A stretch of 64,000 nt of DNA from Acidimicrobiia bacterium UBA5794 (GTDB lineage: Bacteria; Actinomycetota; Acidimicrobiia; Spongiisociales; UBA5794): assembly GCA_002418265.1 (NCBI GenBank), contig DIDS01000032.1, positions 76,396 through 140,395 on the forward strand, given 5' to 3'. The notes under the pieces are model-generated. The model was not told where the DNA came from, searched no databases, and saw only the letters and a program-made list of their open reading frames with translations. Shown here piece by piece: positions 21,166-62,552 of this stretch; within the stretch, counting starts at the first letter, position 1; the number at the start of each line of letters is the position of its first letter. The translations under genes and the position numbers were made by a program.

Positions 21166-21166
21166 A

Positions 21167-25093: not shown

Positions 25094-25112
25094 TACAAAG
25101 AACGCCCCAGAG

Positions 25113-28660: not shown

Positions 28661-28670
28661 GGAGGCAGAA

Positions 28671-29844: not shown

Positions 29845-30158
29845 TGGACGGTCTCGAAGTCACGGCATCGTGGTATCTCATCCTTGCCGCAGCGCTGTTC
29901 GCCATCGGTGTCGCTGGCGTGGTGGTTCGCCGCAACGCCCTTGTGATGTTCATGTCGATCGAGTTGATGCTCAACAGCGTCAACCTCACGTTCGTGGCCG
30001 TCAGCAAAGATCTCGGGTTGATAGAAGGTCAGGTTGCTTCGCTGTTCGTGATGGTCGTTGCCGCAGCTGAAGTAACGGTCGGCCTCGCGATCATTGTTGC
30101 AGTCTTCAGGAAGCGCTCAAGCGCCAATGTGGACGAACTCGCAGAGTTGAAGGGCTGA
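29844..30158 (+). CDS. nuoK: NADH-quinone oxidoreductase subunit K
   Basis: 104 aa, 3 TM, conserved [12 protein letters not shown]. Confidence 0.85.
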
Positions 30159-30160
30159 CC

Positions 30161-35090: not shown

Positions 35091-36366
35091 TCGTCCAAGG
35101 CGTAGCGTCCCGTTTTTCGGGTTGGCTTTCGTCGGACTTCTTGCCGTGCTGGGGTCACTTGTCGGGTCGCTCGTTACAACAAACATCTTTGTCGTGTCGG
35201 AGAATGATCCAATCTCTGAGGATGTGTACGTCACATCGACGCGTGGTGTTGTCGATGGCGTCATCGATGGTGATCTGACAATCTTTACCGGGAATCTCGT
35301 GATCAACGGCGAGGTGACGGGCACCGTCCAGGTGTTCTCATCTGGATCGGTGACGATCAACGAAGGTGCCAAGATCGGTGGTTCCCTTCGCGGCGCCGCA
35401 CTCAATGTCACGGTCGGCGGTGAAATCGGAGCCGATGTGTTCGCGTCTGCTGCATCGGTGGTTGTCGAAGAAACGGGGACGGTGGCTCGTGATGTCATGG
35501 CATTCGGTGGCGTGGTGCGGGTTGAAGGGGACGTCGGACGCGACGTGCGGGGACGGATGATCAGGACCGTCATCGACGGAAGCGTTGGTGGAGACATTGA
35601 CGTCGCCACGCAGCGCTTTGAGGCCGGTTCGAGTGCCATGGTGGACGGCGATGTCCTGTATCGGTCTCCAACCGGGGCGTCGATCGACGACGGCGCCGAG
35701 ATTCTGGGAACCATCACCAGGCTTCCCTCTCAGAGCAATTTCGTTTACGGGGTCATTCTCACGATTGCCAACCTGGTTGGCTTCCTTGGATTCCTGTTGT
35801 CGGGTCTTGTCGTGCTGTTCGTGTTGCGTGGATCTTCAAGTCGAGCCACCGGCGCCGTGGTGACAAAGCCAATCCGGAGCTTCCTCTACGGACTGGTGGC
35901 GGTGGTGGTGGCTCCGATCGCTGTCGTCGTCCTCGCTGCGACGCTCGTGGGACTTCCTCTTGCGATCATGCTTGCCATGGCAATGGTTGCGTCGCTCATC
36001 GTTGGACCCGTGCCTGCGGTCGCGGCTCTCGGAAACCGCTTGCTGTGGAAGAAGGGCGGAATTCTTGCGGCGTTTGCGGTCGGTGCAGTTCTGTGGCGTG
36101 CCACAATCTGGCTGATCCCTGTGGTCGGCGGGGTCCTCTACGTCATCGCTCTCGTATGGGGCATCGGCGCCTGGATCATCGGTTTCGTTGAGACCCGCCG
36201 TGGTGATGAGATTCCGCTTTCTCTGCTTCCAGAGCGGCTCGTAGCTGAAGACCGGGTACCAGACGACTGGGTGCCGCCGTTGAGCCCGTCATCGGGCCTT
36301 CGGGTAGACAACCGCGTCGAGAACCTCAAGGTCGACGGTGTCCCCAACGTGGATGGCGTGGAGTGA
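35062..36366 (+). CDS. beta-helical (bactofilin / polymer-forming cytoskeletal-like) repeat protein with C-terminal polytopic membrane domain
   Basis: ~435 aa. N-terminal TM, then ~200 aa of degenerate GxVxGxV repeats (GDLTIFTGNLVINGEVTGTVQVFSSGSVTINEGAKIGGSL...), then 5-6 TM helices. Start uncertain (ATG 35062 overlaps the nuoN end; TTG 35122 or GTG 35146 are alternatives). Confidence 0.5.
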   Translation: MSSETHSRCSRPRRSVPFFGLAFVGLLAVLGSLVGSLVTTNIFVVSENDPISEDVYVTSTRGVVDGVIDGDLTIFTGNLVINGEVTGTVQVFSSGSVTINEGAKIGGSLRGAALNVTVGGEIGADVFASAASVVVEETGTVARDVMAFGGVVRVEGDVGRDVRGRMIRTVIDGSVGGDIDVATQRFEAGSSAMVDGDVLYRSPTGASIDDGAEILGTITRLPSQSNFVYGVILTIANLVGFLGFLLSGLVVLFVLRGSSSRATGAVVTKPIRSFLYGLVAVVVAPIAVVVLAATLVGLPLAIMLAMAMVASLIVGPVPAVAALGNRLLWKKGGILAAFAVGAVLWRATIWLIPVVGGVLYVIALVWGIGAWIIGFVETRRGDEIPLSLLPERLVAEDRVPDDWVPPLSPSSGLRVDNRVENLKVDGVPNVDGVE

Positions 36367-37314
36367 CGACACGAGGGCCTCAACTCTGTCGGCGCTCTCG
36401 GCAAGTTCGATCTCAACCCTTTGGTCGTGCCCATAGAACTCAGTGTCGACCACACGGTGTGTGCCTGTTGGCGAAACGGTTGGACTGATCCACTCTGGTC
36501 GGATCATCACGGTCACGTCGGTCCCATCTGAGAGGTCGGTCTCGATCTCCGCGATAGAGGTCGGGATCGACCCCGACTCGACAGTACCGGAGAGAATCAA
36601 CGCATCCCCGAGGAAATGTGCAACCCATCGGTTGACTGGTACTCGATAAACGGCATCTGGTTTACCGATTTGGACGATCGCACCCTCATGCATGACCGCA
36701 ACGATGTCTGCGATCGCAAGTGCCTCTGCCTGGTCATGGGTCACGAGGACCGCGGTGACGCCAGCGGCCCGGATGATCTCCTTGATCTCCCTGCGCATGC
36801 GCTCGCGTTTGGGTGCATCAAGATTCGAGAACGGCTCGTCAAGGAGTACGACATCGGGACCGGGTGCGAGTGCGCGTGCAAGCGCGACGCGCTGCTGCTC
36901 GCCGCCCGAGAGCTCGTGCGGAAACCTCGATCCGTGCCCGCTCAACCCGACCAGTTCAAGCACTTCATCCACGCGATGCACTCGGTCGGACCCCCGTACC
37001 CCGTACCCGACGTTCTCAGCGACGGAGATATGTGGAAACAGCGCATATTCCTGGAACACCATGCCGACCCGTCGCTTCTCGGGTGGCACGTTGACCTTTC
37101 CGTCGAGGACCGGGGTGTCTCGGATCGACACCGATCCCGTGTCCACGTCCTGAAACCCAGCGATGACCCGCAGGGCCGTGGTCTTGCCACATCCGGATGG
37201 GCCCACGAGGGCGAGGAGACTTCCGGTCGGCACATCGAGCGAGAACCGGTCAAGTGCCTTGGCTTCGCCGAATGTCACGGTGACGTCGCGCACGGAGATG
37301 ACATGATCGCTCAT
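36289..37314 (-). CDS. ABC transporter ATP-binding protein (Fe3+/spermidine-type, FbpC/PotA-like with C-terminal TOBE domain)
   Basis: 341 aa from MSDHVISVRD. Walker A GPSGCGKTT, signature LSGGEQQRVALARAL, Walker B VVLLDEPFSNLD. The long ORF upstream of the M is not used because the permease stop lies there. Confidence 0.85.
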   Translation of the reverse strand: MSDHVISVRDVTVTFGEAKALDRFSLDVPTGSLLALVGPSGCGKTTALRVIAGFQDVDTGSVSIRDTPVLDGKVNVPPEKRRVGMVFQEYALFPHISVAENVGYGVRGSDRVHRVDEVLELVGLSGHGSRFPHELSGGEQQRVALARALAPGPDVVLLDEPFSNLDAPKRERMRREIKEIIRAAGVTAVLVTHDQAEALAIADIVAVMHEGAIVQIGKPDAVYRVPVNRWVAHFLGDALILSGTVESGSIPTSIAEIETDLSDGTDVTVMIRPEWISPTVSPTGTHRVVDTEFYGHDQRVEIELAESADRVEALVSSLHAIHVGDTVDLEVLDAVVYPKAR

Positions 37315-38933
37315 CGCTCGACAACAGCCTTTGGCTTGATGGAGAGGAAATAGACAGGAAGCACCGACATGGCGATGAGGATAAGCGCAGCAGTCGCTGC
37401 TCGTGTGTAGAGCAATTCGTCGGCGGCCGCCCACACACGAACAGCGAGTGTCGAGAATCCTGGCGGACTCAACAGCAGTGTGACGGGAAGCTCCTTGAGA
37501 GTCGTGACGAACACCAAGGCGCCACCGGCCAGAAGGCCCTTCGCCATCAATGGAACGGTCACTCGCATCAAGGTCGCGAAAGGGCCACGCCCGAGCGATC
37601 GTGATGCATCTTCGACGGCAGGGTCGACTTGGAGGAGCGACGCTTTCGCCGCACTGGTTGATTGGGCAATGAACATGCCTGCATAGACCGTTACGAGAAC
37701 GAACATGGTCTGGTAGACCGGCCGTGCCCACCTGATGGTGAAGGCAACGACGGCGATGGCAATCGTGATATGTGGAAGCGAGAAGATCACGAACACCGAT
37801 CGCTCAAGGAGCATCGTTCGCTTCGACGCGTAGCGAACGGCGAGGACGACGATCGGTACGGTGAACACCATGGCCACCAACGCAGCGAGTGAGCCACCGG
37901 TCAACGATCCAACAACGGCATTCCACGGGACCGAGATGTCCGCTCCGTGATACGCCCCGCGCGCCACCCAGGTCGTCAACACCCCGATGGGAATCACCGT
38001 CCCGATGACCACGACTGTTCCCAAACCGGCAACGGCGAGGACATGTTTCGCTCCTCGGAGCCGATGCAAGGCCGGGGGCCGGTTCGGTGTCGACGAGAAC
38101 GTCGTGCCCCTACCCGATGTTCGCCGCTCCGCCCAGATGATCACGCTGGCAAAGAGAATCAACACGATCGAGAGCACGATCGCCGGTGATCGGTCGATAC
38201 GACCCGAGTACTGGGCGTAGATCACCCTCGTGAAGGCATCAAAACGCATGAGTGAAACCGCGCCGAAATCCGACAACGTGTAGAGCGCGGCAAGCAGAGC
38301 ACCCGCGCCAACTGCAGGTCGAAGTTGAGGAAGCACGACGGTGCGGAACACCCGCCACGGTGATGCCCCAAGTCCGCGAGCCGCCTCCTCAAGTGCGGGA
38401 TCGATCCGTCCGATCGAGGCGGCCGTGATGAGGTAGACGTACGGATACGTGGCAAGCGTCAGGGCGACCCACGCCCCGGGAAACCCCGTCAGTCTGGGGA
38501 TCTCGAAGCCAACGAGCTGAGCGACAAGTCCGCGTGGACCCGACGACGAGACGAGGACCATCGCAATCACATACGACGGAATGACAAGCGGGAGAGCGAA
38601 CGCGACACCCCACATCCTTTTGAACCCAATATCGGTCCTTGCCAGGATCCACGCACCGGCCACGCCGATGGCGGTTGCGGCCATCGTAACGAGGGCCGTG
38701 AGAGCAAAGGATCGCCACACCAACTCGAGTGTGCGGATCGACAACAGCGTCGACCATGCCGAGTCCGTCGCGTCGAGAACCCGAACCAGGAGCGCGACGA
38801 TGGCAAGTCCGAGCGGGAGAACGATCAGTAGTGAAGCGACCCAGAGCCACCAAGGTGCCTTGGCGGCTGATACCCGTGACCGACGGATCGGATCCGTCTG
38901 CGGTAAGGCATTCGGATCGATGTCGATCATCAT
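37311..38933 (-). CDS. ABC transporter permease, fused two-domain (FbpB-like)
   Basis: ~540 aa, 12 TM. Two EAA-like loops (LSDFGAVSLMRFD.., GRGPFATLMRVTVP). Stop overlaps the ATPase start. Confidence 0.8.
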   Translation of the reverse strand: MMIDIDPNALPQTDPIRRSRVSAAKAPWWLWVASLLIVLPLGLAIVALLVRVLDATDSAWSTLLSIRTLELVWRSFALTALVTMAATAIGVAGAWILARTDIGFKRMWGVAFALPLVIPSYVIAMVLVSSSGPRGLVAQLVGFEIPRLTGFPGAWVALTLATYPYVYLITAASIGRIDPALEEAARGLGASPWRVFRTVVLPQLRPAVGAGALLAALYTLSDFGAVSLMRFDAFTRVIYAQYSGRIDRSPAIVLSIVLILFASVIIWAERRTSGRGTTFSSTPNRPPALHRLRGAKHVLAVAGLGTVVVIGTVIPIGVLTTWVARGAYHGADISVPWNAVVGSLTGGSLAALVAMVFTVPIVVLAVRYASKRTMLLERSVFVIFSLPHITIAIAVVAFTIRWARPVYQTMFVLVTVYAGMFIAQSTSAAKASLLQVDPAVEDASRSLGRGPFATLMRVTVPLMAKGLLAGGALVFVTTLKELPVTLLLSPPGFSTLAVRVWAAADELLYTRAATAALILIAMSVLPVYFLSIKPKAVVER

Positions 38934-38943
38934 TCCCTCGCCG

Positions 38944-39939
38944 TCACAACAGCCCGGCGTCAGCCACCAGATCTGTCGCAAGATCGAGGACGCCCGCGAG
39001 ATCCGAAAGATTGATATCCGGCGTCGCGATCGTGTCGATCGGTGGCAGCGCAGGGTTGGCGGCTACGCCCGGCACCATCGGGTATTCGAACGTCTCGTCT
39101 GCAAAGTAGGTCTGGGATTCGTCATTGAGCAGCCACTCGATGAACGTTCGACCTTCGTCCTTGTGCTCTGAGCTTGAGAGGATGCCGGCTCCAGCTGGCA
39201 TCACAAGCGATCCAGCAGTCGGTTCGGGGAAAAAATAGTTCAATCCGACCACATCCGGGTTCTCAGACAACGCTCGTAGTAGGTAGTAGTGGTTGACAAG
39301 TCCGGCGTCGATCTCGCCAGCGTTGACCGCAGCAACGATTGGTGAGTTCTTCGGATAGGTGGGCGAGTTGTTCGCCGCCATGCCCTTGAGCCACGTGAGG
39401 GTCGACTCTTCGCCGTCGATCAGGATCTTGGCGGCAACGAACGCAAGAAATGAACCGTTGGTGGGCGCGATTCCGACCCGACCCTTCCATTGCTCGTCTA
39501 CAAAGGCATCCTCTGTCGGAGGAAGCGTGGCTTCGCTGACCGACGTCGGATCGTAGACCACGACCCTGGCTCGCCCCGATGTCCCGACCCAATGCCCTGC
39601 ATCATCGGAGAATCGGGACGGCACCTTCCCAAGTAGTTCGTTTGGGAGCGTTTCGAACAATCCCGCGAGCGCAACGGTTCCGAGCGATGCGGGATCCTGG
39701 GCGAAGAACACATCGGCGGGGGAGGCGGCACCTTCCTCAAGAATCGTTCCGGCGAGATCGGCTGAATCGGCATATTTGACCACGACGTTGATGCCGGTGT
39801 CCTTCGTGAACGCATCGATCACCGGTTGAACCAGATCCTCGCTCCGCCCCGAGTACAACGTGATGTGTGCATCTCCTGACGAAGAACACCCGGATGCGAC
39901 GATTGCGGCCACCACCGCAAGCAGTGTGATTCGCCTCAT
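38944..39939 (-). CDS. Fe(III)-type ABC transporter substrate-binding lipoprotein
   Basis: 331 aa. Lipobox LLAVVAAIVASGC. Periplasmic-binding-protein fold blocks of the FbpA/AfuA type. Confidence 0.75.
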   Translation of the reverse strand: MRRITLLAVVAAIVASGCSSSGDAHITLYSGRSEDLVQPVIDAFTKDTGINVVVKYADSADLAGTILEEGAASPADVFFAQDPASLGTVALAGLFETLPNELLGKVPSRFSDDAGHWVGTSGRARVVVYDPTSVSEATLPPTEDAFVDEQWKGRVGIAPTNGSFLAFVAAKILIDGEESTLTWLKGMAANNSPTYPKNSPIVAAVNAGEIDAGLVNHYYLLRALSENPDVVGLNYFFPEPTAGSLVMPAGAGILSSSEHKDEGRTFIEWLLNDESQTYFADETFEYPMVPGVAANPALPPIDTIATPDINLSDLAGVLDLATDLVADAGLL

Positions 39940-40052
39940 GATCCAAGACCTTCCGATTCTTTCGCTATGCCTTATGAATTAATTAGGCAAGATTATATTC
40001 ACTACGTTCGTAGGGCAAATTAGAGCGACAGCACCGATGTCCGGCGAAATCC

Positions 40053-41159
40053 TCACGCCTCGGACGGTCGGACCAGAAAGGGTATCTCGACGTCCGCTCG
40101 TTCGGCTCCGCCGTGGTGTCCGACGAGTTTCCGATTTGACTGGGGCCCAAATGCGGTGGTCCCTTGCGGCAGGAACACGATCCCTGAAGGTGCTCTGGCG
40201 ACGAACTGAGGGTGCATCGGGCCTGGCCCCCACCACTCGGGTCCCGTTTCAAGCGGTGACCATGCTCCGCCGTGACGATCGGCGAGCTTTGATCCGTCGC
40301 CATGAACGAACACGACTCGGCCATCCTCAGAAACGAAGCCTCCGTCCAGATCGTCCATATCGATGAGATGGCGTGAGGATTCGTCGATATCGATGTGGCC
40401 GTGATCGGCGGTCCCGATCAGACACACATCGGAAGGGAGCATGGTTGCGAGACTGGCCCAGATTGTGTTTGCGCGTGTCATCGCCTCGTCGTACATCTCG
40501 GACCTTTGTCCAGCGATGTGTGCGGCAAAGTCAACGTCTGGGACATATACGAACACGAGCCGCTTGCCGATCGAAGCGACATCGGTCGCGATCGTGGCGA
40601 TCTCATCGATGTTCCAGTAGCCCTCGAATCTGGCGCCCCGATACAGCGCTTTCGTGAGGGGGGTCGACGCAAAGTTGCCAGGCTGTATCACGACTGGCTC
40701 AATCCCTGACGCATTGAGCCGTTCCCACAGGTTCGGTGACGGAAGAAGCCCGGGCGCATCGAGGTCAGGAATCGGCTCCCCGATCGGTGTTGTCATGTGG
40801 ATCGTGTTGACCACCGAACCGATGTCGGGCATCCACATCTTGTATGCAATCAAACCGTGCTGGGAAGGAGGGAGCCCTGTTGCGACCGTCGCGAGGCTCA
40901 CGGTGGTTGTTGCAGGGAACGGAGCGTCGAGCACGCCTGTCGTGGCGGCAGCCAGATCGTGTGCATTTGGGTGGTTGAGCTGGTGTGCTCCGAGACCGTC
41001 AAACAGCACGAGGACGCAGGTTGAAGCAGAAGGAATGGAATCTGCCAGGTCCGGATCCAGCGTGGGCGACGGGGCGGCTCCCGTGAGCCGATGTTCGATC
41101 TCTGCCACGAGATTGACCAGCCCACGCCCGACATAATTGGGTACTTGAGGAACATCCAT
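40053..41159 (-). CDS. alkaline phosphatase-superfamily protein (nucleotide pyrophosphatase/phosphodiesterase-like)
   Basis: 368 aa. Metal-site-like blocks LVLFDGLGAH and GTADHGH. Confidence 0.65.
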   Translation of the reverse strand: MDVPQVPNYVGRGLVNLVAEIEHRLTGAAPSPTLDPDLADSIPSASTCVLVLFDGLGAHQLNHPNAHDLAAATTGVLDAPFPATTTVSLATVATGLPPSQHGLIAYKMWMPDIGSVVNTIHMTTPIGEPIPDLDAPGLLPSPNLWERLNASGIEPVVIQPGNFASTPLTKALYRGARFEGYWNIDEIATIATDVASIGKRLVFVYVPDVDFAAHIAGQRSEMYDEAMTRANTIWASLATMLPSDVCLIGTADHGHIDIDESSRHLIDMDDLDGGFVSEDGRVVFVHGDGSKLADRHGGAWSPLETGPEWWGPGPMHPQFVARAPSGIVFLPQGTTAFGPQSNRKLVGHHGGAERADVEIPFLVRPSEA

Positions 41160-41305
41160 CGGTGCGGAAACTAACAGTCATGGGCTGCGAGCCCTAGGCC
41201 TGCGTCGATCGGCTTTCGTCTAATTACAAGTGCCTCCACGGACTGCGATAGAATCGCAACCCGTAAGGGAACGACCAACCTGTCTGCTTCGAAGGGTTAC
41301 TCGGG

Positions 41306-41689
41306 GTGCTCAATCAGTACTACGGCGACTACCTGACCGTCGCGCTGTTCATCGCGGTTGGTGCAATATTGGTGGGTGGGGCAGTCGGTGCGTCGAAACT
41401 CCTTGCCCCCAAGAATCCGGGTGGTTTCAAAGATGTTGCGTATGAATCTGGAATCGAGCCTGTTGGTGGGGGCTGGAACCAGAGTCACATCCGGTACTAC
41501 ATCTTCGCCCTGATGTTCCTGATTTTCGACGTCGAGGCTGTGTTCATCTTTCCGTGGGCGATCACACTTGATGCGTTCCAAGCAGCTGGGCGCGGTGTCT
41601 TCATTCTTGTCGAGATGTTCCTTTTCATTCTGATTCTTCTGTCCGGTCTGCTCTACGCCATAAGGAAGGGCGTCCTCAAATGGGAGTGA
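41306..41689 (+). CDS. nuoA: NADH-quinone oxidoreductase subunit A, second copy
   Basis: 127 aa, GTG start, 3 TM with [11 protein letters not shown]. Confidence 0.8.
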
Positions 41690-42177
41690 TCGACAGATTC
41701 AACACCCCAAAACCTCTGTCATGGCTGCTCAACTGGTCCCGCAAGTATTCCCTCTGGTATTTCCAGTTCGGGCTTGCATGCTGTGCAATCGAGGTCATGG
41801 CCGTGTCGAGCTCACGGTACGACTTCATGCGTTTCGGGATCACCCCGCTCCCCGCTTCACCCAGGCAAGCTGACCTCATGGTCGTCGCAGGGACCGTGAC
41901 CGACAAGATGGCTCCTGCGATCCGTCGTCTGTACGATCAAATGCCCGAACCCAAGTACGTGATCTCGATGGGATCATGCTCGAATTCTGGTGGTCCCTAC
42001 TGGGATTCGTACTCGGTGACGAAGGGTGTTGATCAGTTGATGCCGGTCGACATCTATGTCCCTGGTTGTCCTCCCCGCCCAGAGGCACTCCTTCAGGGCA
42101 TCATCCTGCTTCAGGAACGTATCCAGAACGAGGACTTGAAAAAGAAGTGGAGTGGGGTTGATGAGCGACACGCCTGA
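41680..42177 (+). CDS. nuoB: NADH-quinone oxidoreductase subunit B, second copy
   Basis: 165 aa. [27 protein letters not shown]. Confidence 0.9.
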
Positions 42178-42820
42178 CACGCCAACCACGGAAACCGACG
42201 TCGTCGAAGCGGCTGAGCATGACGGGGTTGAGACCGGTGCACTTCAACAGTGGGCCGATGCACTCGTTGAGGAACTCGGTGCCCTCGGTTCAACGGTCGA
42301 GTTCGACACGGTCCGCATCCATGTCGATCCCGCACGGTGGGTCGAAACGATCAATCAGGCCCGTAAGAAACTTGAACTCTTTTCGTGGCTGTCGGCAATC
42401 GACTGGTCAAAGGATGTCGAGGTCGGGGATCCGGTCGATGATGTCGACACATTGGAGGAACGTTTCGAGGTCCTCTGTCGTCTTTCGTCGGTCGAAAACG
42501 CCGATGGTGCCATCTTCGTTGCTGTGATCGACCGGGAGAACCCCTTCATCGACTCGCTGATGCCGACAATCGGTGGCGCCGAATGGCACGAGCGCGAAGC
42601 ACACGAAATGTTCGGCATTGACTTTGTCGGAAACACGAATCTGATCCCGCTCTATCTCCCCGACGACTTCATCGGGAACCCCCTCCTCAAGTCATACCCC
42701 CTGCTCAGCCGTGAGGTCAAGCCGTGGCCGGGCGACGTCGACGTGGAACCGATGCCCGAACTGCCCGAGATCGAAGCAACCGACGACGTTGAATCGGACA
42801 CCGAAGGTGAGGAATCATGA
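42161..42820 (+). CDS. nuoC: NADH-quinone oxidoreductase subunit C, second copy
   Basis: ~219 aa. [16 protein letters not shown] block. Start uncertain (42152 or 42161). Confidence 0.8.
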
Positions 42821-44001
42821 CTGACCTCGCCATGATCCATCGCTCCGAGTCGGCGGTCTCCATCGAACTCCAGACACCTGACATGACGCTCAACATCGGA
42901 CCCCAGCACCCCTCCACGCACGGGGTCCTCAGGCTCATTGCCAAGGTCGCAGGCGAACGCGTCACCGATGTCGAGCCCGTGATCGGGTACATGCATCGTG
43001 GGTACGAAAAGTTGTCCGAGGTTCGCACGTATGCCCAGATCACCACATTGGTGAACCGCATCGACTGGGTAGCAGGGTTTGCCAGTGAGGTTCCGTTCAT
43101 CATCGGTGTCGAAAAACTCATGGGTGTCGAAGCGCCTCCGCGTGCCCAATACATTCGGATGATCCTCACCGAGCTTGCCCGTATGGCGTCCCATCTTGTT
43201 TTCATGTCGTCTTACCCCCTTGAACTTGGCGCCACGACCCCCCTCATGTACGCATTGCGTGAACGTGAATACATCCTTGAGCTGATCGAGGAAGTGACCG
43301 GCGGCCGGTTCCACCCCAACTTCAACCGAGTCGGGGGTGTCAAGCCGGTCTATGGCGGTGGATCGATGACCAAGAAGTGGTCCTTGGATCTCCCTGAGGG
43401 CTTCCTCCAGCGGGCACGGGATGCCATGGATCGTATGGAGCAGATCTGTGACGACATCGACACCCTCGTCAGCGACAACGAGCTCATCAAGATGCGAACC
43501 GTCGGTATCGGTGTGATTCCTCGCGACAAGGCGCTCGAGTATGGGTTGACGGGTCCGAACCTACGGGCTTCGGGAGTGGCGTACGATTTGCGGAAGGTCG
43601 AAAATCTCTTGCCATACGATGAGATCGACTTCGACATCGCCGTTCGCCAAGGCGGGGACTGTTATGACCGATACGTTCTGCGGATCGAGGAGGTCCGGCA
43701 GTCGTCAAGGATCGTCCGTCAGGCAGTTGACCAGATCCCCTCCGGGCCGTTGCAGACCAAGGTACCCCGTGTCCTGAAGGCACCCCGCGGTCAGGTCTAC
43801 TCACGGGGCGAGAACCCGAAGGGTGAGTTCGGGTACCACATCGTTTCTGAGGGCGCACGGATGCCATACCGTCTCAAGATCCGTTCGACGAGTTTCTCGA
43901 ACCTCTCGATTCTCCCCTGGATCCTCCAGGATGCCCTCATCCCTGACCTGGTTGCAATCATGGGTTCACTCGACTTCGTCCTCGGAGATGTTGATCGATG
44001 A
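42817..44001 (+). CDS. nuoD: NADH-quinone oxidoreductase subunit D, second copy
   Basis: 394 aa. [16 protein letters not shown]-terminal SLDFVLGDVDR. Confidence 0.9.
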   Translation: MTDLAMIHRSESAVSIELQTPDMTLNIGPQHPSTHGVLRLIAKVAGERVTDVEPVIGYMHRGYEKLSEVRTYAQITTLVNRIDWVAGFASEVPFIIGVEKLMGVEAPPRAQYIRMILTELARMASHLVFMSSYPLELGATTPLMYALREREYILELIEEVTGGRFHPNFNRVGGVKPVYGGGSMTKKWSLDLPEGFLQRARDAMDRMEQICDDIDTLVSDNELIKMRTVGIGVIPRDKALEYGLTGPNLRASGVAYDLRKVENLLPYDEIDFDIAVRQGGDCYDRYVLRIEEVRQSSRIVRQAVDQIPSGPLQTKVPRVLKAPRGQVYSRGENPKGEFGYHIVSEGARMPYRLKIRSTSFSNLSILPWILQDALIPDLVAIMGSLDFVLGDVDR

Positions 44002-45008
44002 ACTTCTGGCTTGAGCTGATCATCAAACTCGTCGCGATCCTCGGGTTCGTTCTGACCGGCGCGCTCGTCGTCATTTATGCCGAGTTGAAAGCTGGTTCGC
44101 ACATGCAGGGCCGGATAGGTCCGTACTACGCAGGGGTTCGTTGGGGATGGGCCCAGCCTCTTGCCGACGGTCTCAAGTTCCTTCAGAAGGAAGACCTGTC
44201 ACCCACCGGAGCAGACCGCACCATCTATGGGCTTGCACCCTACGTCGTGATGATGTCGACCATTGCAGTGTTCGTGGTGATCCCATTCGGCCCCGACATG
44301 GTGGGTCGTGACCTCGATCTGGGCATCTACTTCATCCTTGCCATATCGTCGCTTTCAGTCCTCGGCATTCTCATGGCCGGCTGGTCATCGGCGAACAAGT
44401 ACTCGCTGATGGGTGGTTTGCGTGCCGCTGCCCAGCTCATTGCCTATGAGCTCCCGCTCGTCCTCGCTGCTGCTGCGGTTGTGGTGCAGGCGGGAACGAT
44501 GTCAATGAACGGCATTGTCCTTGCCCAATCGGAAACGTGGTTCACGGTCGCCGGAATCGACGTTGCGATGCCGTTCCTGCTCAAGGGACAGATCATCAGT
44601 TTCATCATCTTCATGATTGCTGTGGTCGCAGAGCTCTCCCGAATCCCGTTCGACATGCCCATTGCCGAATCTGAACTGACCATGGGATATCTCACCGAGT
44701 ACTCGGGAATCCGGTTCACGATGTTCTTCCTCGGTGAGTACGCATCGATGATTGCCTTCAGCGCCATTGCCGCAACGTTGTTCCTTGGCGGATACGCAGC
44801 TCCTGGCGTTCCTGACGGCCTGGCGAACCTTGTGGGGCCCGGGGTGATGCTGCTCAAGATCGCCCTACTCGTCTTTGTGATCATCTGGATCAGATGGACG
44901 TGGCCTCGACTTCGAGAAGACCAGCTCCAGCGGTTGGCGTGGTTCTGGCTCATCCCCATCGCCCTTGCCAACATTGCCGTTGTCGCGATCTTCAAAGTGG
45001 TGTTCTAG
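43998..45008 (+). CDS. nuoH: NADH-quinone oxidoreductase subunit H, second copy
   Basis: 336 aa. RIGPYYAGVRWGWAQPLADGLK and ESELTMGYLTEYSG blocks. Confidence 0.9.
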   Translation: MNFWLELIIKLVAILGFVLTGALVVIYAELKAGSHMQGRIGPYYAGVRWGWAQPLADGLKFLQKEDLSPTGADRTIYGLAPYVVMMSTIAVFVVIPFGPDMVGRDLDLGIYFILAISSLSVLGILMAGWSSANKYSLMGGLRAAAQLIAYELPLVLAAAAVVVQAGTMSMNGIVLAQSETWFTVAGIDVAMPFLLKGQIISFIIFMIAVVAELSRIPFDMPIAESELTMGYLTEYSGIRFTMFFLGEYASMIAFSAIAATLFLGGYAAPGVPDGLANLVGPGVMLLKIALLVFVIIWIRWTWPRLREDQLQRLAWFWLIPIALANIAVVAIFKVVF

Positions 45009-45485
45009 ATGAGCGACAAGCAAATCAGATTCCCATTCCGCGGCCTTTGGGAAGGCATGTGGTTGACGCTCAAGACGATGCTCAAACCTGCACCGGTCAC
45101 CATGTATCCCCAGGTCCAGGAGGAACCCGTCCCCCGTGCCAGGGGCGTCATCGCACTCGACGTCGAAGCGTGCACGGTCTGCATGTTGTGCGCCCGAGAA
45201 TGTCCCGATTGGTGCATCTACATCGAGGGTCACAAAGAAGAGCAGCCTCCGTCCAAGCCAGGCGGTCGGCCCCGTGTCCGTGCAACGCTCGACCGGTTCG
45301 ACATCGACTACTCACTGTGCATGTATTGCGGGATCTGCGTTGAGGTGTGCCCATTCGATGCCCTCTTCTGGACACCCGAATATGAGTACAGCGAACCGAA
45401 AATCACCAACCTCCTCCACAATATGGACAAGCTCACGTACTGGCTCGGAACCGTCCCCGACCAGCCACCGCTGGAGAAATCATGA
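45009..45485 (+). CDS. nuoI: NADH-quinone oxidoreductase subunit I, second copy
   Basis: 158 aa. [12 protein letters not shown] and [12 protein letters not shown]. Confidence 0.9.
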
Positions 45486-46021
45486 CGGTTACGATCTCTG
45501 AGTTCTTCAAAGAATCAGCCAACTGGGCCTTTCTCGCAATCGCTGTTCCGACGTTGTTTGCGGGGTGGCGGACCGTCACGAGCAACAACATCGTGCGTGC
45601 GGTTCTGTATCTGGTGGTTTCCCTTGGCGGCACCGCTGGCTTGTTCTTCATGCTCGGAGCCGAGTTCGTGGGATGGACAGTCGTGCTTGTGTACATCGGC
45701 GCCGTCATCATCTTGTTCCTGATCGGCATCATGATCACCAGGGCGCCGTTGGGTCAGGAGGCCGACCTCAGTCACGCCATGAATGTCAAGGCTCCTGCTG
45801 CGCTACTTTCCACGGTCGTTTTCGGTGTCATCACCTGGGCCATGATCGATGCTTTCGGCAACAACATGATTCCACCGTTCGAGCCCACAGCCACTTCGGA
45901 TCTGTCACTGCTCCTGTTCGATCGATTCGTGATCCCATTCGAGGTTGTGTCCTTTGTGCTCCTGGCCGCGCTCATCGGTGGAATCGCCATCGCCAGACAG
46001 GATGAGGAGGTGGTGTCATGA
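45482..46021 (+). CDS. nuoJ: NADH-quinone oxidoreductase subunit J, second copy
   Basis: 179 aa, 5 TM. Confidence 0.8.
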
Positions 46022-46323
46022 CGCTGATCCAATTCCTCATCGTTGCCACAGCCCTCTTCTCGTTTGGCCTCTATGGAGTGATTACCAGAAAGAACGCGGT
46101 CCTCGTTCTCGCATCGGTGGAGTTGATGCTCGCTGCCGTCAACATCAACCTGGTCGCATTCGACGTGTACCTTGACGATCCCCTCAACTCGGGCCAGATC
46201 TTTACCTTGTTCACCATTGCACTTGCTGCCGCCGAGGTGGGTATTGGTATTGCGATCATCTTGATGATCTACCGCAATCGTCAGTCCGCTGATGTCGACG
46301 ACCTCGATTTGATGAAGGGCTGA
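46018..46323 (+). CDS. nuoK: NADH-quinone oxidoreductase subunit K, second copy
   Basis: 101 aa, 3 [14 protein letters not shown]. Confidence 0.85.
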
Positions 46324-46325
46324 GC

Positions 46326-48410
46326 ATGCTCCCACTCGCAACATTTGCCCAGCAACTCATCCTTGCTACCGAGGAGACCACGGGCGGCCATTCGGGCATC
46401 GAACCTGGCATCACATCGGGTGCACTGGTGGAGTGGGCCTGGCTCATCGTTGTGGTCCCGCTTGTCGCCACATTCCTCATCCTGTTCTTCGGCAAGAAAC
46501 TGCCGATGAAGGGCTGGGAGCTCGCGGTGGGATCCATCGGCTTCGTCGGTGTCTACGGCACGATCCTGTTCATCCTCAATGCGACGGAGGGGATTCTCTA
46601 CGAAGGACATCTTGAAGTAGCCAAGATGGGGGACTTCATCATCGAGTGGGGCTGGATGGTCGACGGCTTGTCGATCATGATGTACTTCCTTGTCGGTGTC
46701 GTGGGAACGCTCGTGTTCGTGTACGCCAAGTCGTACATGGACGGAGACATCCGGTTCACCTGGTTCTTCGTGTCTTTCTCATTGTTCGCCGGCGGCATGC
46801 TGGTTTTGGTCTCGGCACCCAACTTCCTGCAGCTCATCGTCGGCTGGGAGCTCGTTGGTGTGTCCTCGTATCTGCTCATCGGGCACTACTGGGAGGATTT
46901 CGAGAACGTCGATGCGGGCAACAAGGCGTTCATGGTCAACAAGGTTGCCGATGCTGCGCTGTTCATCGGGGCAATCATCATGGCGGTATCGGTCGGCTCG
47001 TTCAGCTTCAACGACATCATCGATGTCGTGATGCACGGCGAGGCCGGACCCCTTTCCCAGTTCGGTTTCTGGGCAGGTCTGGCCGTCTTCATCGGGGCAA
47101 TGGGCAAATCGGCACAGTTCCCGTTGCACGTGTGGTTGCCCGATGCCATGGCGGGCCCCACACCGGTGTCCGCTCTCATGCACGCTGCAACCATGGTGAC
47201 CGCGGGTGTCTATCTCCTCGGCCGGCTGTTCCCGTTCTATCTCGATGTCGGTGGCATGTTCGGGGGCGATGTCAGGAACATCATCATCGTGATCGGTGGG
47301 TTGACACTCTTCCTCATGGGTCTTGTTGCGATTGTCCAGGATGACATCAAGAAGGTTCTTGCCTACTCCACCGTGTCACAGCTCGGGTACATGGTCGCCG
47401 CGATGGGAGCGGGTGCGTACACCGCTGGGTTGTTCCATCTGTTCACCCATGCGTTCTTCAAGGCGCTGTTGTTCCTCGGAGCTGGTTCGCTGATCCATGC
47501 GGTGCATTCCAACGACATGTCAGACATGGGTGGCCTCCGCAAGAAAATGCCGGCCACGTTCTGGACCTTCATCTTGGGGACCCTCGCCCTCGTTGCCGTG
47601 TTTCCATTCGCCGGGTTCTTCTCCAAGGACGAAATACTGGCTTCCATCAAGTATGCGGGTGGGTCTGGTCAGGACGTTGCGAACTCCATTCTCATCCTCG
47701 GCCTGCTTGGATCGTTCATCACAGCCTTCTACATGGTGCGCGTGATCGCCCTCACCTTCTTCGGTGAGTACAAGGGTGCGGCCCATCCGCACGAGTCCCC
47801 GAAGCTCATGACCTATCCCCTCATCGTTCTTGCGTTCTTTGCCGTGACCGCCGGATGGGTGAACATCCCCGGTGTCTACACCGGCTTCACCGAGTGGGTG
47901 GCGACTCGCGTCCCACTTGTGGGGATGGGGGATCACCACGCAGAAGGGTTCGACTGGCCGGTCGTGCTCGTGTCGAGTGGCCTTGTGCTCGTTGGTGTTG
48001 TGATCGCGTGGATGATCTACAACAAGGACGCGGAGACAAATGCGGCCCGTGACTGGTTCCGGATCCCCGTTCTGTGGCCACTTCTGGAGAACAAGTACTT
48101 CATCGACGACCTCTACATGAGTGGTGTGGTTCGACCTGTCATGGGGCCGATCGCAAGCACGGTGCTGTGGTTCGACATGAACGTGGTTGACGGCATCGTC
48201 AACGGGGCAGGAGCCGCGGGCAAGGTTCTTTCCAAGGGTGTGTTGGTGATCGACGACAACGTGGTCGACGGGGTATTCAACGCATCGGGTGCCGTAACCG
48301 GTGCCTCGGGATCCGTTCTGAGAAGGTCTTTCACAGGCCGCGTGCAGCAGTATGCGGCGTTCGGTTTTGTCGGCGTGATCGTGATCGTCGTCCTTTTCGT
48401 CATCATCTAG
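46326..48410 (+). CDS. nuoL: NADH-quinone oxidoreductase subunit L, second copy (extended C-terminus)
   Basis: 694 aa. WLPDAMAGPTPVSALMHAATMV. Confidence 0.9.
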   Translation: MLPLATFAQQLILATEETTGGHSGIEPGITSGALVEWAWLIVVVPLVATFLILFFGKKLPMKGWELAVGSIGFVGVYGTILFILNATEGILYEGHLEVAKMGDFIIEWGWMVDGLSIMMYFLVGVVGTLVFVYAKSYMDGDIRFTWFFVSFSLFAGGMLVLVSAPNFLQLIVGWELVGVSSYLLIGHYWEDFENVDAGNKAFMVNKVADAALFIGAIIMAVSVGSFSFNDIIDVVMHGEAGPLSQFGFWAGLAVFIGAMGKSAQFPLHVWLPDAMAGPTPVSALMHAATMVTAGVYLLGRLFPFYLDVGGMFGGDVRNIIIVIGGLTLFLMGLVAIVQDDIKKVLAYSTVSQLGYMVAAMGAGAYTAGLFHLFTHAFFKALLFLGAGSLIHAVHSNDMSDMGGLRKKMPATFWTFILGTLALVAVFPFAGFFSKDEILASIKYAGGSGQDVANSILILGLLGSFITAFYMVRVIALTFFGEYKGAAHPHESPKLMTYPLIVLAFFAVTAGWVNIPGVYTGFTEWVATRVPLVGMGDHHAEGFDWPVVLVSSGLVLVGVVIAWMIYNKDAETNAARDWFRIPVLWPLLENKYFIDDLYMSGVVRPVMGPIASTVLWFDMNVVDGIVNGAGAAGKVLSKGVLVIDDNVVDGVFNASGAVTGASGSVLRRSFTGRVQQYAAFGFVGVIVIVVLFVII

Positions 48411-48423
48411 GAGGAGCAACAAG

Positions 48424-50016
48424 ATGGATTGGTTAGATAACGGCTTGGCGCTGAGCCTGGTCGTGTTCCTACCGGTCGTCGGCGCGGGAATCGTGCTGGC
48501 CATCCCGAAGGCGCAGGAGGCGGCAATCAAATGGACTGCCCTCATCGTCTCGCTGGTCACACTCGCCCTCGCCGTCGTGCTGGCGGTGCAGTTCGACTAT
48601 TCGGCTGCGGACACGTACCAGTTCGGGACCGCCATCGATACGCCATGGATTGAGGCTATCAACGCCCATTTCCACATCGGTGTGGATGGCATCTCGCTAC
48701 CCATGGTGGTGCTCACCACCCTCATCACGATGCTGTGCATCGTCTACTCCTTCAACCACTTGCCCGAACCACACAACCCGAAGCTTCTCCTGGCGATGAC
48801 GCTCCTCCTCGGCACCGGAATGGCTGGCACGTTTGTGGCACTCGACCTTGTGTTGTTCTTCGTCTTCTTCGAGATCGTCCTGTTGCCGATGTACTTCATG
48901 ATCGGCATCTGGGGTGACCGAGGCATCAGGTATGTCCCGATATTCGGTTGGAAGATGGAGATGCGCCTGTATGCGTCCCTGAAGTTCTTCGTGTTCACCC
49001 TGTTCGGGTCGGCCTTCATGCTGTTGAGCTTCCTGGCCCTGTACTTCCGATCAGGTGACACACTTGGCTACAACTCGTTCTCGATGGTTGAGCTCTCCAA
49101 CATCGGTCCGGCGGGTGCGTTCACGGGAACATTTGCGTTCTTGGTATTCCTCGGGCTGTTCCTCGGGTTTGCCGTCAAGGTTCCGATGTGGCCGGTCCAC
49201 ACGTGGTTGCCCGATGCACATACTGCTGCACCGACCATCGGTTCGGTGATTCTTGCTGCCATCCTCCTGAAGCTCGGTACGTATGGGTTCATCCGGATAG
49301 CGTTGCCGATTCTCCCGGACGAAGCGATCAACTGGGCCCCGTTCATCGGCGTCCTTGCAGTGATCGGGATCATCTACGGTTCGCTTGCATGTTTGGCCCA
49401 GACCGACATGAAGCGGCTGATCGCCTATTCATCGGTCGGGCACATGGGCTTTGTCATGCTCGGCATTGCCACGCTGACCGATATCGGCATCAACGCCGCC
49501 ATCATCGGGATGGTCGCCCACGGCCTCATCACCGGCTTGCTGTTCTTCGTTGTCGGTTCGATGTCGCATCGATATCACACCCGAGACATGAACCGTCTCG
49601 GTGGCGCGATGGTGTCCCTGCCAAGGATGGGTCTGATCCTGGGGTTCGCCGCGATGGCATCGCTCGGGTTGCCGTCACTTGCCGGCTTCTGGGGTGAGTT
49701 CATGTCGCTGATGGCATCGTTCGATCCGCTCGAAGCAATTGGTGCAACGGGTCTGTTCAGGGGCTTCATGGTGGTTGGTGCTGTCGGCACGGTCCTCACC
49801 GCTGCCTACATGTTGTATCTGTTGCGAAGCGTCATTTTCGGTGAACCAGCCGAGGAGTGGGTCAGTCAGGAATTCCACGACGTGGACACCGCCGAGTGGC
49901 TTGCATGGGCACCGCTCATTGCTGGCATCATCGCCATCGGCATCTTCCCGAAGATCGTCTTCGGCGCAACCAACGACGCCGTTGTCTCCCTCGTCCAGAA
50001 AGCCTTCGGAGCCTGA
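48424..50016 (+). CDS. nuoM: NADH-quinone oxidoreductase subunit M, second copy
   Basis: 530 aa. HTWLPDAHTAAPTIGSVILAA. Confidence 0.9.
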   Translation: MDWLDNGLALSLVVFLPVVGAGIVLAIPKAQEAAIKWTALIVSLVTLALAVVLAVQFDYSAADTYQFGTAIDTPWIEAINAHFHIGVDGISLPMVVLTTLITMLCIVYSFNHLPEPHNPKLLLAMTLLLGTGMAGTFVALDLVLFFVFFEIVLLPMYFMIGIWGDRGIRYVPIFGWKMEMRLYASLKFFVFTLFGSAFMLLSFLALYFRSGDTLGYNSFSMVELSNIGPAGAFTGTFAFLVFLGLFLGFAVKVPMWPVHTWLPDAHTAAPTIGSVILAAILLKLGTYGFIRIALPILPDEAINWAPFIGVLAVIGIIYGSLACLAQTDMKRLIAYSSVGHMGFVMLGIATLTDIGINAAIIGMVAHGLITGLLFFVVGSMSHRYHTRDMNRLGGAMVSLPRMGLILGFAAMASLGLPSLAGFWGEFMSLMASFDPLEAIGATGLFRGFMVVGAVGTVLTAAYMLYLLRSVIFGEPAEEWVSQEFHDVDTAEWLAWAPLIAGIIAIGIFPKIVFGATNDAVVSLVQKAFGA

Positions 50017-50018
50017 CA

Positions 50019-51530
50019 ATGGACGCCATCGACTACCACGCGCTGCTACCAGAGATCATCCTTGCGGTCACTGTGTTGGCGACGCTGTTGGTCGACCTGT
50101 TCACGAGCAGGAAGTCGTTTGCGGCCATAACCGCGATGATCGGCATGTTTGCCTCATTCGTTGCGATCTTGACGCTTGCATTCTGTGACAACCTTACGTT
50201 TTGTACTTCGACGGGTGATCGAGTCCTCTTCGGAGGATCGTTCGTCGTCGACGGTTATGCGATCGTTCTCCAGGGGTTGTTCATCTTTGCCGGGTTCATC
50301 GTGGTCCTGATGTCCGTCGGCTATCTCGAAACCGACCGGTATTACGAGGGGGAGTTCTATTTCCTGATCGTCTCTGCCGTACTCGGCGCTGCCGTGATGG
50401 CGTCGTCTCGGGATTTCATCTCGATGATTGTCGCCCTTGAGATCGTGTCGGGATCGGGATTCCTGCTCGCTGGTTGGCGAAAGGGAGATGCCCGATCAAA
50501 CGAAGCCTCGCTCAAGTTCTTCATCATTGGGGTACTTGCCCTTGCGCTGCTCCTGTTCGGTGTGTCGTTGATCTACGGCCTCACCGGCACCCAGGTGTTC
50601 AGCGAGATTGCTGCAGCCTCTTCCAGTGTGGAAGACATTGCACTGTTCAACCTCGGAGCGATTTTCGTATTGCTCGGCTTCGGGTTCAAGGTTTCGGCTG
50701 TCCCATTCCACTTCTGGACGCCCGACGTCTATGAGGGTTCGCCACCTCCGGTCACCGCTTGGCTCTCGGTGGGTTCCAAGGGTGCCGGGTTCGTGGGCCT
50801 GCTATCGGTTTGTTACCTGGCCCTGCCATCCGTCACCGAGATCTGGGGACCCGTGCTGTGGCTGGTTGCAGCGTTGTCGATGACGATCGGAAACATCGTC
50901 GCCATCAAACAGACGAACGTGATCCGACTGCTTGGCTACTCGTCGATCGCCCAGGCGGGGTTCATGCTGGCACCATTCGGAGCGGCTGCCGCCACCGGTG
51001 CCGATCTGAGTCAGACATTCAGCGCAACGGTGACCTACCTCGTGATCTACGCCGTGATGAACCTCGGTGCCTTTGCCGTGGTGATCATCGTTGGAACCCG
51101 CGTCGGCTCGTACGAACTCGAACGCTGGTCGGGACTCAACACATGGGCCCCCGGCCTTGCGTTGTCGCTGGCAGCGTTCTTCATGTCCTTGGCCGGGATC
51201 CCGCCACTTGCAGGGTGGTTCGCCAAGTTCGTCATGTTCAGCGCCACGATTGGTGTTGGCAGCTGGTGGGGATATTCGATTGCCATCGTTGCGGCTCTCA
51301 ACGCGGTGATTGCCCTCGTGTATTACCTCAAGGTGCTCAAGTCCGCGTTCTTCGATACGGTGCCTGCGGATCTTGATGTTGCGACGTTGGAGGCAGGCAC
51401 GGTCCCTGGCCCGACCAGCTTTGCCATCGGTCTCACCGCAGCGGCAGTCCTGGTGCTCGGCATCTTCCCCGGCCTCGCAGCCAACCTCGGCGACTTCAGC
51501 TCTGACTTCCTAGCAACCCTCGGCCTTTAA
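50019..51530 (+). CDS. nuoN: NADH-quinone oxidoreductase subunit N, second copy
   Basis: 503 aa from MDAIDYHALLPEI. FHFWTPDVYEGSPPPV block. Confidence 0.85.
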   Translation: MDAIDYHALLPEIILAVTVLATLLVDLFTSRKSFAAITAMIGMFASFVAILTLAFCDNLTFCTSTGDRVLFGGSFVVDGYAIVLQGLFIFAGFIVVLMSVGYLETDRYYEGEFYFLIVSAVLGAAVMASSRDFISMIVALEIVSGSGFLLAGWRKGDARSNEASLKFFIIGVLALALLLFGVSLIYGLTGTQVFSEIAAASSSVEDIALFNLGAIFVLLGFGFKVSAVPFHFWTPDVYEGSPPPVTAWLSVGSKGAGFVGLLSVCYLALPSVTEIWGPVLWLVAALSMTIGNIVAIKQTNVIRLLGYSSIAQAGFMLAPFGAAAATGADLSQTFSATVTYLVIYAVMNLGAFAVVIIVGTRVGSYELERWSGLNTWAPGLALSLAAFFMSLAGIPPLAGWFAKFVMFSATIGVGSWWGYSIAIVAALNAVIALVYYLKVLKSAFFDTVPADLDVATLEAGTVPGPTSFAIGLTAAAVLVLGIFPGLAANLGDFSSDFLATLGL

Positions 51531-62550: not shown

Positions 62551-62552
62551 CC

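Follow-up and report, generated by a model that had tools for sequence, protein, structure and literature searches.

How does a complex I without an NADH-oxidising module obtain its electrons in an organism that also encodes the complete enzyme? The question is raised by a 64,000-nucleotide stretch of DNA from Acidimicrobiia bacterium UBA5794 (GCA_002418265.1, contig DIDS01000032.1, positions 76,396 to 140,395; hereafter the window), in which a canonical operon of 14 nuo genes, termed here nuo1, is followed by a second set of 11 genes, termed nuo2. The original prediction, made from the letters of this stretch, had ordered the second set as nuoA, B, C, D, H, I, J, K, L, M and N at 41306-51530, without nuoE, nuoF or nuoG; Pfam, NCBIfam and tblastn bear this out. 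In our opinion, nuo2 encodes an ancient, proton-pumping paralogue of complex I that lacks the N-module (NuoE, NuoF and NuoG) and would receive electrons from a soluble low-potential carrier such as ferredoxin. We put the probability of this reading at roughly 45%, i.e., somewhat below one half.

The nuo2 operon and its conserved residues

Eleven contiguous open reading frames (ORFs) on the plus strand make up nuo2, and their identity follows from ORF layout and Pfam, with E-values that span 1e-25 to 1e-102. NCBIfam is concordant with Pfam for the ten proteins tested, A to M. The operon opens with nuoA2 (41306..41689, 127 aa; Oxidored_q4, 1.3e-31), followed by nuoB2, the carrier of cluster N2 (41680..42177, 165 aa; Oxidored_q6, with an NCBIfam NuoB subfamily score above the cut-off), nuoC2 (42152..42820, 222 aa, or 219 aa from the alternative start at 42161, as called on public contigs; Complex1_30kDa, 2.1e-25), and nuoD2, which encodes the quinone-site subunit (42817..44001, 394 aa; Complex1_49kDa, 1.1e-84). 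Then come nuoH2 (43998..45008, 336 aa; NADHdh, 1.8e-102), nuoI2, a dicluster protein of the Fer4 families that carries N6a and N6b (45009..45485, 158 aa, or 142 aa from the alternative start at 45057), nuoJ2 (45482..46021, 179 aa; Oxidored_q3, 9e-31), and nuoK2 (46018..46323, 101 aa; Oxidored_q2). The series ends with nuoL2, antiporter-like and bearing the lateral helix (46326..48410, 694 aa; Proton_antipo_N and Proton_antipo_M; NCBIfam NuoL, 588 bits against a cut-off of 556), nuoM2 (48424..50016, 530 aa; Proton_antipo_M; NCBIfam NDH_I_M, 542 bits), and nuoN2 (50019..51530, 503 aa, as also called on public contigs; Proton_antipo_M), whose ATG at 50019 lies two bases past the nuoM2 stop. A 557-aa ORF from 49857 was rejected as the nuoN2 product, being too long and overlapping nuoM2. 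The gene junctions range from an overlap of 17 nt to a gap of 13 nt, and nuo2 is therefore taken to be one operon and one transcription unit. Public contigs that are identical to this DNA and were annotated independently carry the same 11 gene calls.

The canonical 14-subunit complex I is encoded together with its NuoE, NuoF and NuoG, which provide the FMN and NADH site. This holds for nuo1 (20189..35090, plus strand; A to I, including E, F and G, assigned by Pfam, and J to N by ORF layout and BLAST to the nuo2 paralogues), whereas nuo2 has none of the three. Within the window, tblastn matches of NuoE1, NuoF1 and NuoG1 are confined to the nuo1 operon, and no antiporter-like gene was found beyond the three of nuo1 and the three of nuo2. 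Nor do nuoEFG-like genes lie just outside nuo2: the window extends 41 kb upstream and 12.5 kb downstream of it, and the genes that flank it are non-nuo genes on the opposite strand.

Conservation was assessed in a scan that used one genome per species. A relative of NuoD2 is present in at least 590 species genomes, and the 80 loci compared here are the best of these (65-89% identity), nearly all of them from metagenome-assembled genomes (MAGs) of Acidimicrobiia. The gene set, its conservation, and the integrity of the cofactor ligands and pump residues are directly established. Thus, NuoB2 keeps the four cysteines of N2 (CC...GSC...GCPP), which are invariant in 72/72 species, and NuoI2 has two CxxCxxCxxxCP motifs, for N6a and N6b, all of whose cysteines are invariant in 69/69 species. 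NuoD2 begins with the motif GPQHPSTHG and ends in SLDFVLGDVDR; its only cysteines are C211 and C282, and the positions of the NiFe ligands have no cysteine, so that NuoD2 is not a hydrogenase. Membrane-bound [NiFe] hydrogenases (Ech/Mbh/FHL) possess these ligand cysteines, and MBH and FHL chains are the weakest solved matches to NuoD2 (146 and 137 bits), the best being Nqo4 of Thermus thermophilus (346 bits).

The residues of the membrane arm were checked in pairwise alignments with the nuo1 paralogues. NuoL2, NuoM2 and NuoN2 retain the Glu of transmembrane helix (TM) 5, the Lys/His of TM7/TM8, and the Lys of TM12 (Glu in NuoM): the canonical Glu, Lys, His and Lys-Asp motifs in NuoL2; the TM5 Glu, the Lys of both TM7 and TM8, and the TM12 Glu in NuoM2; and the Glu and three Lys in NuoN2. 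Both membrane glutamates of NuoK2, the acidic pair of NuoA2 (DVE, i.e., Asp-x-Glu), the TM3 Tyr of NuoJ2, and the loop motifs RIGP, AQxIAYE, AExxRxPFDxxxAESEL and EYSG of NuoH2 are likewise retained. Since the Fe-S ligands and the membrane-arm residues checked are intact, the nuo2 product looks like a working redox-driven proton pump.

The original prediction had also likened nuo2 to the minimal 11-subunit architecture of archaeal Fpo and of cyanobacterial and chloroplast NDH-1. The likeness in gene set and architecture stands; a closer kinship does not. Fpo has 11 homologous core genes in the same order. NDH-1, in which the electrons of ferredoxin arrive at the NdhI side, shares the 11 core subunits, and NdhH of T. 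elongatus is the second-best solved match to NuoD2 (318 bits), while for NuoL2 the highest-scoring solved chain is NdhF1 (357 bits). However, the nuo2 proteins fall far below the NCBIfam cut-offs of both systems: FpoD 332 vs 600, FpoH 252 vs 475, FpoL 344 vs 1050, FpoK 106 vs 145, and FpoI 48 vs 180 for Fpo; NdhH 362 vs 583, NdhF 468 vs 963, and NdhI 50 vs 302 for NDH-1. Neither the operon and its surroundings in the window nor any of the 80 loci contains an FpoF or FpoO gene, and the nuo2 locus encodes none of the NDH-1-specific subunits NdhS, V, O, and L to Q.

The NUO11 enzymes of Firmicutes, Chlorobi, Bacteroidetes, Chloroflexi and other groups have the same gene set as nuo2, without an N-module and with the Q- and P-modules intact (PMC3144371; PMC11238625); NUO11 and nuo2 are also alike in having neither NiFe ligands nor a donor encoded nearby. 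The class of 11-subunit enzymes has been on record since 2011, when it was noted to occur in Actinobacteria and to have an unknown partner (PMC3144371). Unlike NUO11, nuo2 coexists with a full 14-subunit operon and adjoins it. The same arrangement has been reported for Candidatus (Ca.) Actinomarinales, which belong to the same class and have two neighbouring nuo clusters, one of them without nuoEFG, with a Fe(III) ABC transporter between them (PMC7771536; bioRxiv 10.1101/2021.02.01.429150). Their paralogue has the 11-gene order of nuo2 and likewise lies a few kb away from the 14-gene operon. The nuo2 arrangement is therefore already published for the class, and the locus described here is a further member.

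The quinone site of NuoD2 and the lateral helix of NuoL2

Two properties of the nuo2 proteins, a tryptophan at the quinone site of NuoD2 and a duplicated segment in the lateral helix of NuoL2, set the clade apart from all characterised enzymes; both were missed by the original prediction, and both seem to be undescribed in the literature on nuo2 sets. The codon of Trp84 of NuoD2 (TGG, 43066..43068) stands at the position of Tyr87 of T. thermophilus Nqo4 in an ungapped HMMER alignment ('RMDY' vs 'RIDW'). Trp occupies this position in 120/120 close homologues and in all 80 species loci, whereas NuoD1 has Tyr, as does NdhH. Reviews describe the quinone-binding Tyr87 as 'strictly conserved' and as the proton donor to quinone (PMC8119997), and it has been interpreted as the earliest mark of reactivity with quinones (PMC4758237).

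The quinone-site signature (Tyr87, His38, Asp139 and Asp401, in T. thermophilus numbering) is retained in part by NuoD2: His38 is present in 80/80 species and Asp401 in 79/80, and in 80/80 species Glu stands at the position of Asp139. NUO11 enzymes have been described with a signature that includes Tyr87, where nuo2 has Trp, and Fpo has been reported with Tyr87 but without His38 and Asp139, a pattern opposite to that of nuo2 (PMC4758237). It should be noted that the change of Tyr87 to Trp concerns the chemistry of the site and is no bar to membership of the 11-subunit family. NuoD2 is further marked by a 13-residue insertion, PVYGGGSMTKKWS, after the GGVK motif (43345..43383); it is missing from T. 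thermophilus Nqo4 and cyanobacterial NdhH, and its length is 13 residues in 80/80 species.

Outside the class, the nearest Trp-type NuoD proteins are those of Nocardioidaceae/Propionibacteriales, at 48% identity and with the motif 'NRHDW'. In the one such locus inspected (L081, 10001-11206) the gene is an orphan, as the 10 kb to each side of it contain no further nuo gene, and in this it matches the separate 'nuoD2' of Streptomyces (PMC8388888). Trp is also found at the Tyr87 position of a NuoCD-like fusion protein, P0134, of a Ca. Methanofastidiosia archaeon ('DRMDW'). As a lead only, Trp at this position may recur in complex I-like enzymes with an acceptor other than a standard quinone.

A methyltransferase gene accompanies nuoD or nuo2 in some of these genomes. 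Mitochondrial NDUFAF7 methylates an arginine of the NuoD homologue, and NuoD2 has the arginine of an HRG motif at the corresponding position. An NDUFAF7-like gene (Pfam Methyltransf_28, 6033-7007) lies 3 kb from the orphan Trp-type nuoD of L081. Among the relatives of nuo2, such a gene directly follows nuoN2 in L009, L010, L011, L015 and L016, and lies about 1 kb downstream of nuoN2 in L039 and L075; the window, in contrast, holds no NDUFAF7-like homologue.

The lateral helix of NuoL2 contains a tandemly duplicated module of 26-27 residues with the pattern 'D-x-N-V-V-D-G-x-x-N-x-x-G' (48171..48326; copy 1, residues 616-641; copy 2, residues 642-667), as delimited by alignments with NuoL1 and with solved chains. 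NuoL1 has a 27-residue gap at this site, and the solved NuoL/NdhF chains, including NdhF1, have a single copy of the module, which aligns to either copy 1 or copy 2 of NuoL2. Two copies are present in 55/55 species, and the homologues are 685-705 aa long. The copies have only 9/26 residues and 39/78 bases in common, which points to an old duplication. The lateral helix is thereby lengthened by about 27 residues, or about 40 Å if the extension is straight. An AlphaFold2 model of NuoL2 built with 57 sequences (mean pLDDT 78) predicts the lateral helix to be one helix, 590-651, with pLDDT below 50 for residues 635-684, so that it gives no firm geometry for the extension. NuoL2 also has an N-terminal extension of about 33 residues (46326-46430, residues 1-35) that is missing from NuoL1 and from solved NuoL chains; its length is conserved, its sequence partly so ('LAAEE...PGIT.G.LVEW'), and the confidence of the AlphaFold2 prediction is low there.

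The duplication is similar in length and position to a 26-residue insertion in NuoL of the Nitrospira '2M' complex I, which is thought to span a fourth pump subunit (Chadwick et al. 2018, as cited in PMC9040806 and PMC12342949). The enzymes of Nitrospira and Ca. Manganitrophaceae described there resemble nuo2 also in having separate NuoC and NuoD. Unlike the 2M operon, nuo2 has no second nuoM, its antiporter-like genes being L, M and N only. The same insertion occurs in some Manganitrophaceae NuoL proteins without an extra NuoM (PMC9040806).

Descent, electron supply and rival explanations

The nuo2 set is widespread and uniform. Hundreds of metagenomic proteins are 79-97% identical to NuoD2, and the order A-B-C-D-H-I-J-K-L-M-N is found in every informative locus among the 80, i.e., those with enough DNA. 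None of the 80 has a match to NuoE, NuoF or NuoG, a second nuoM, or an extra pump gene. In the seven loci with a long enough flank, the tail of nuo1 lies 5-8 kb upstream of nuo2, as in the window. Reading frames are intact in the loci examined, save for local gaps or breaks in a few MAG contigs. Long D-H, K-L, L-M or M-N gaps are seen in L027, L048, L057, L069, L070, L019, L010 and L044; that they encode extra small subunits was rejected, as the gaps share no conserved ORF. In L027 (8400-9300), the 3' end of nuoD2 and the next ~220 bp are tandemly repeated, which creates a D-H gap of 650 bp and is probably an assembly artefact or a local duplication.

The paralogues of nuo1 and nuo2 are 27-52% identical by BLAST, NuoD2 is closer to 61 full-length cluster representatives from elsewhere than to NuoD1, and GC content is flat across the window. 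By these comparisons, nuo2 is an old paralogous lineage that has been inherited vertically within Acidimicrobiia. A recent duplication of nuo1 was rejected on account of the low identity and the closer outside representatives, and a recent lateral acquisition on account of the uniform GC content, which bears no compositional sign of transfer, and the class-wide synteny.

How the electrons travel, which quinone accepts them, in which direction the enzyme runs and what feeds it are inferred from these observations. The exposed [4Fe-4S] clusters of NuoI2 would be the point of entry, and N6a and N6b would relay the electrons to N2 on NuoB2, from which a membrane quinone, presumably menaquinone in an actinobacterial host, would be reduced in the pocket formed by NuoD2, NuoB2 and NuoH2. 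Quinone reduction would in turn drive proton pumping via NuoH, A, J and K and the three antiporter-like subunits. Having no NuoEFG, nuo2 would not oxidise NADH by itself. By analogy with cyanobacterial NDH-1 and other NUO11 enzymes, the likeliest donor is a ferredoxin-type carrier that would dock at NuoI2 and is possibly reduced by 2-oxoacid:ferredoxin oxidoreductases. The 11-subunit enzymes are widespread without a universal partner gene and have been proposed to act as a docking platform for soluble donors (PMC3144371). That of Desulfitobacterium is essential with cytoplasmic donors, and ferredoxin is its proposed donor (PMC11238625).

The genomic context bears out the statement of the original prediction that no electron-input partner is encoded next to nuo2 and that the donor cannot be deduced from the locus. 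Across the 80 loci, no conserved partner gene was found upstream, downstream, or in the gaps within the operon. The best ORF cluster 3' of nuoN2 is present in only 18/50 loci, and none of the clusters resembles a redox protein. Neither of the products of the conserved upstream genes, a phosphodiesterase-family enzyme and a Fe(III)-type ABC transporter, is an electron carrier.

Several points weigh against a ferredoxin-fed enzyme of this kind. The operon has no linked gene for a ferredoxin, a flavodoxin or an NdhS/V/O-like protein, and for this reason the donor is assigned by analogy alone. In loci whose flanks reach far enough, nuo2 is always a few kb from nuo1, and the same is true of Actinomarinales (PMC7771536). 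The nuo2 set of Streptomyces is without nuoC (PMC8388888), a hint that assemblies of nuo2 proteins with nuo1 subunits are possible. Lastly, the whole clade has Trp in place of the 'strictly conserved' Tyr that binds quinone and donates a proton to it, so that canonical quinone chemistry is not assured.

Some of these points feed a serious rival, in which the Q- and P-modules of nuo2 dock NuoEFG from nuo1, or the two sets swap other subunits. The product would be a second form of NADH:quinone oxidoreductase, distinct in its quinone site and its membrane arm. We regard this rival as unlikely, at little more than half the weight of the ferredoxin-fed paralogue. The short distance between the two operons, in the window and its seven relatives as well as in Ca. 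Actinomarinales (PMC7771536), fits this explanation, and outside the class NuoD2 has its nearest relative in the product of an orphan gene, namely the Trp-type NuoD of Nocardioidaceae. In Streptomyces, moreover, nuo2 has no nuoC, E, F or G, and its nuoD2 is separate, so that its products must combine with those of nuo1; NuoL/L2 and NuoM/M2 have been proposed to assemble differentially in that genus (PMC8388888). In Acidimicrobiia, unlike Streptomyces, nuoC2 and nuoD2 lie inside the operon, which thus encodes a complete Q-module of its own, and the subunits on which NuoG1 would need to dock, NuoC2, NuoD2 and NuoI2, share only 30-38% identity with their counterparts in nuo1. To our knowledge, no experiment has shown two complexes to be served by a single N-module.

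The resemblance of NuoL2 to the 2M proteins suggests another possibility, namely that the enzyme runs in reverse, the proton-motive force driving electrons from menaquinol to a low-potential carrier, with an additional pump subunit accommodated by the longer helix. Such operation has been proposed for the Nitrospira 2M complex I, and the insertion in NuoL2 falls in the same length class of 26 residues (PMC9040806; PMC12342949). We consider reverse operation improbable: the operon has three antiporter-like genes only, with no further one in the window or the 80 loci, and the same insertion is found in NuoL of Manganitrophaceae without a second NuoM (PMC9040806). We are also not aware that CO2 fixation would require reduced ferredoxin in these heterotroph-like genomes.

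Slightly less probable still is an Fpo-like F420H2 dehydrogenase that would be supplied with electrons from reduced coenzyme F420 by an FpoF-like subunit whose gene lies elsewhere. For the Actinomarinales paralogue, such a role has been put forward because it is ~35% identical to the Methanosarcina mazei cluster and because F420 occurs in Actinobacteria (PMC7771536). Apart from the missing FpoF and FpoO genes, the Fpo models of NCBIfam score far below their cut-offs and are surpassed by generic bacterial Nuo models, and NuoD2 has the His38 that is reported to be missing from archaeal Fpo (PMC4758237); the idea finds no support in the loci compared here. A decaying or non-functional duplicate, lastly, is strongly disfavoured and hardly credible. 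The absence of the canonical Tyr87 might suggest inactivation, but the Trp is invariant in 200 sequences and hence not a product of random decay, species at 65-89% identity have all retained the cofactor ligands and pump residues that were checked, and the reading frames are intact apart from the few gaps and breaks in MAG contigs.

Surroundings of nuo2 and implications

The genes that flank nuo2 are those named in the original prediction, an alkaline-phosphatase-family gene upstream and a hypothetical gene downstream. The former is a Phosphodiest-family gene (alkaline-phosphatase superfamily) on the minus strand, divergent from nuoA2; the latter is a convergent 211-aa ORF without a Pfam match. 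Between nuo1 and nuo2 (36289..41159, minus strand), Pfam identifies an ABC ATPase, a double permease and a solute-binding protein, i.e., a Fe(III)-type ABC transporter, together with the Phosphodiest-family gene. This spacer neighbourhood is conserved across the class: the Phosphodiest-family gene adjoins nuoA2 in most of the 80 loci (40-63% identity), often along with the ABC genes. A Fe(III)-type ABC transporter separates the two operons in Ca. Actinomarinales as well; unlike Ca. Actinomarinales, the lineage of the window has a Phosphodiest-family gene and no heliorhodopsin there. No functional link of the transporter or the Phosphodiest-family gene to complex I is evident. Some relatives have an NDUFAF7-like gene after nuoN2, but the window does not.

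The presumed promoter region of nuo2 is the 146-bp divergent intergenic segment between the Phosphodiest-family gene and nuoA2 (41160..41305), as judged from ORF layout and sequence. A scan of 39.9-53.2 kb, which includes the region upstream of nuoA2, detected no sigma-70 consensus site, and terminator-like sites over the same interval were fewer than in shuffled sequence, neither result being informative. The rex gene (19548..20252, minus strand; Put_DNA-bind_N and CoA_binding) is divergent from nuoA1 and, as predicted, is found beside the canonical operon only. The Gram-positive Rex operator consensus, TTGTGAANNNNTTCACAA, with up to three mismatches, has no site in the window, even beside rex; the Rex operator of this lineage may differ from that consensus. 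Given its absence even there, the scan says nothing on the regulation of nuo2.

Other genes of the window may be mentioned briefly. A Usp (universal stress protein) gene at 52372-52779 on the plus strand is called on the identical public contigs, and the 170-aa minus-strand ORF that overlaps it (52231-52743) is probably spurious. Some 4-12 kb downstream of nuo2 (55521-63401, plus strand) lies a cluster that resembles an aerobic CO dehydrogenase or another enzyme of the xanthine-dehydrogenase family. It comprises genes for a MoxR-like AAA ATPase, a CoxE-like VWA protein, and XdhC-like and CoxG-like proteins, followed by the [2Fe-2S] (small), molybdopterin (large) and FAD subunits; in related loci it is unlinked to nuo2, as far as the flanks extend. 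Upstream of rex, an island of respiratory genes (8953-18977) encodes a geranylgeranyl-reductase-like FAD protein (8953-10185, minus strand), two cytochrome c proteins (10247-13694, minus strand) of 485 aa and of 661 aa, the latter with a FixO-like domain, a split cytochrome b (14841-15638 and 15648-16547), a Rieske protein (16544-17392), and a cytochrome c with two c-type domains (17385-18977). A gene for a DUF222 and HNH endonuclease protein (7111-8505, plus strand) lies 12 kb upstream of nuo1; such genes are common in actinobacterial genomes and are often regarded as mobile.

What, then, does nuo2 contribute to the understanding of complex I? The question of the donor of N-module-less enzymes dates from at least 2011, and the nuo2 locus does not solve it because no partner gene is linked. 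The question is of some breadth, as enzymes without an N-module are widespread and oceans, lakes, soils and sponges all harbour abundant Acidimicrobiia. A bolder interpretation, which we consider doubtful, is that the nuo2 enzyme, and perhaps the whole actinobacterial 'nuo2' lineage, is a mechanistically distinct variant of complex I, with a Trp that is unable to donate a proton and a clamp helix that is longer by approximately the width of one antiporter-like subunit. If this were true, a different acceptor or a different protonation route would be possible, as would a fourth pump subunit encoded elsewhere, which would entail a different H+/e- ratio and possibly reverse operation.

Irrespective of this interpretation, the substitution at Trp84 and the lengthened lateral helix are conserved and testable peculiarities of the nuo2 clade. 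A natural, clade-wide Tyr87-to-Trp enzyme puts to the test those models in which the Tyr protonates quinone and starts the coupling stroke. Analogously, a lateral helix that is 26-27 residues longer, in an operon without a fourth pump gene, bears on the role of this helix and on the origin of '2M'-type enzymes. The orphan Trp-type nuoD of Nocardioidaceae and the nuo2 set of Streptomyces known from the literature point to cultivable relatives in which such tests may be carried out.

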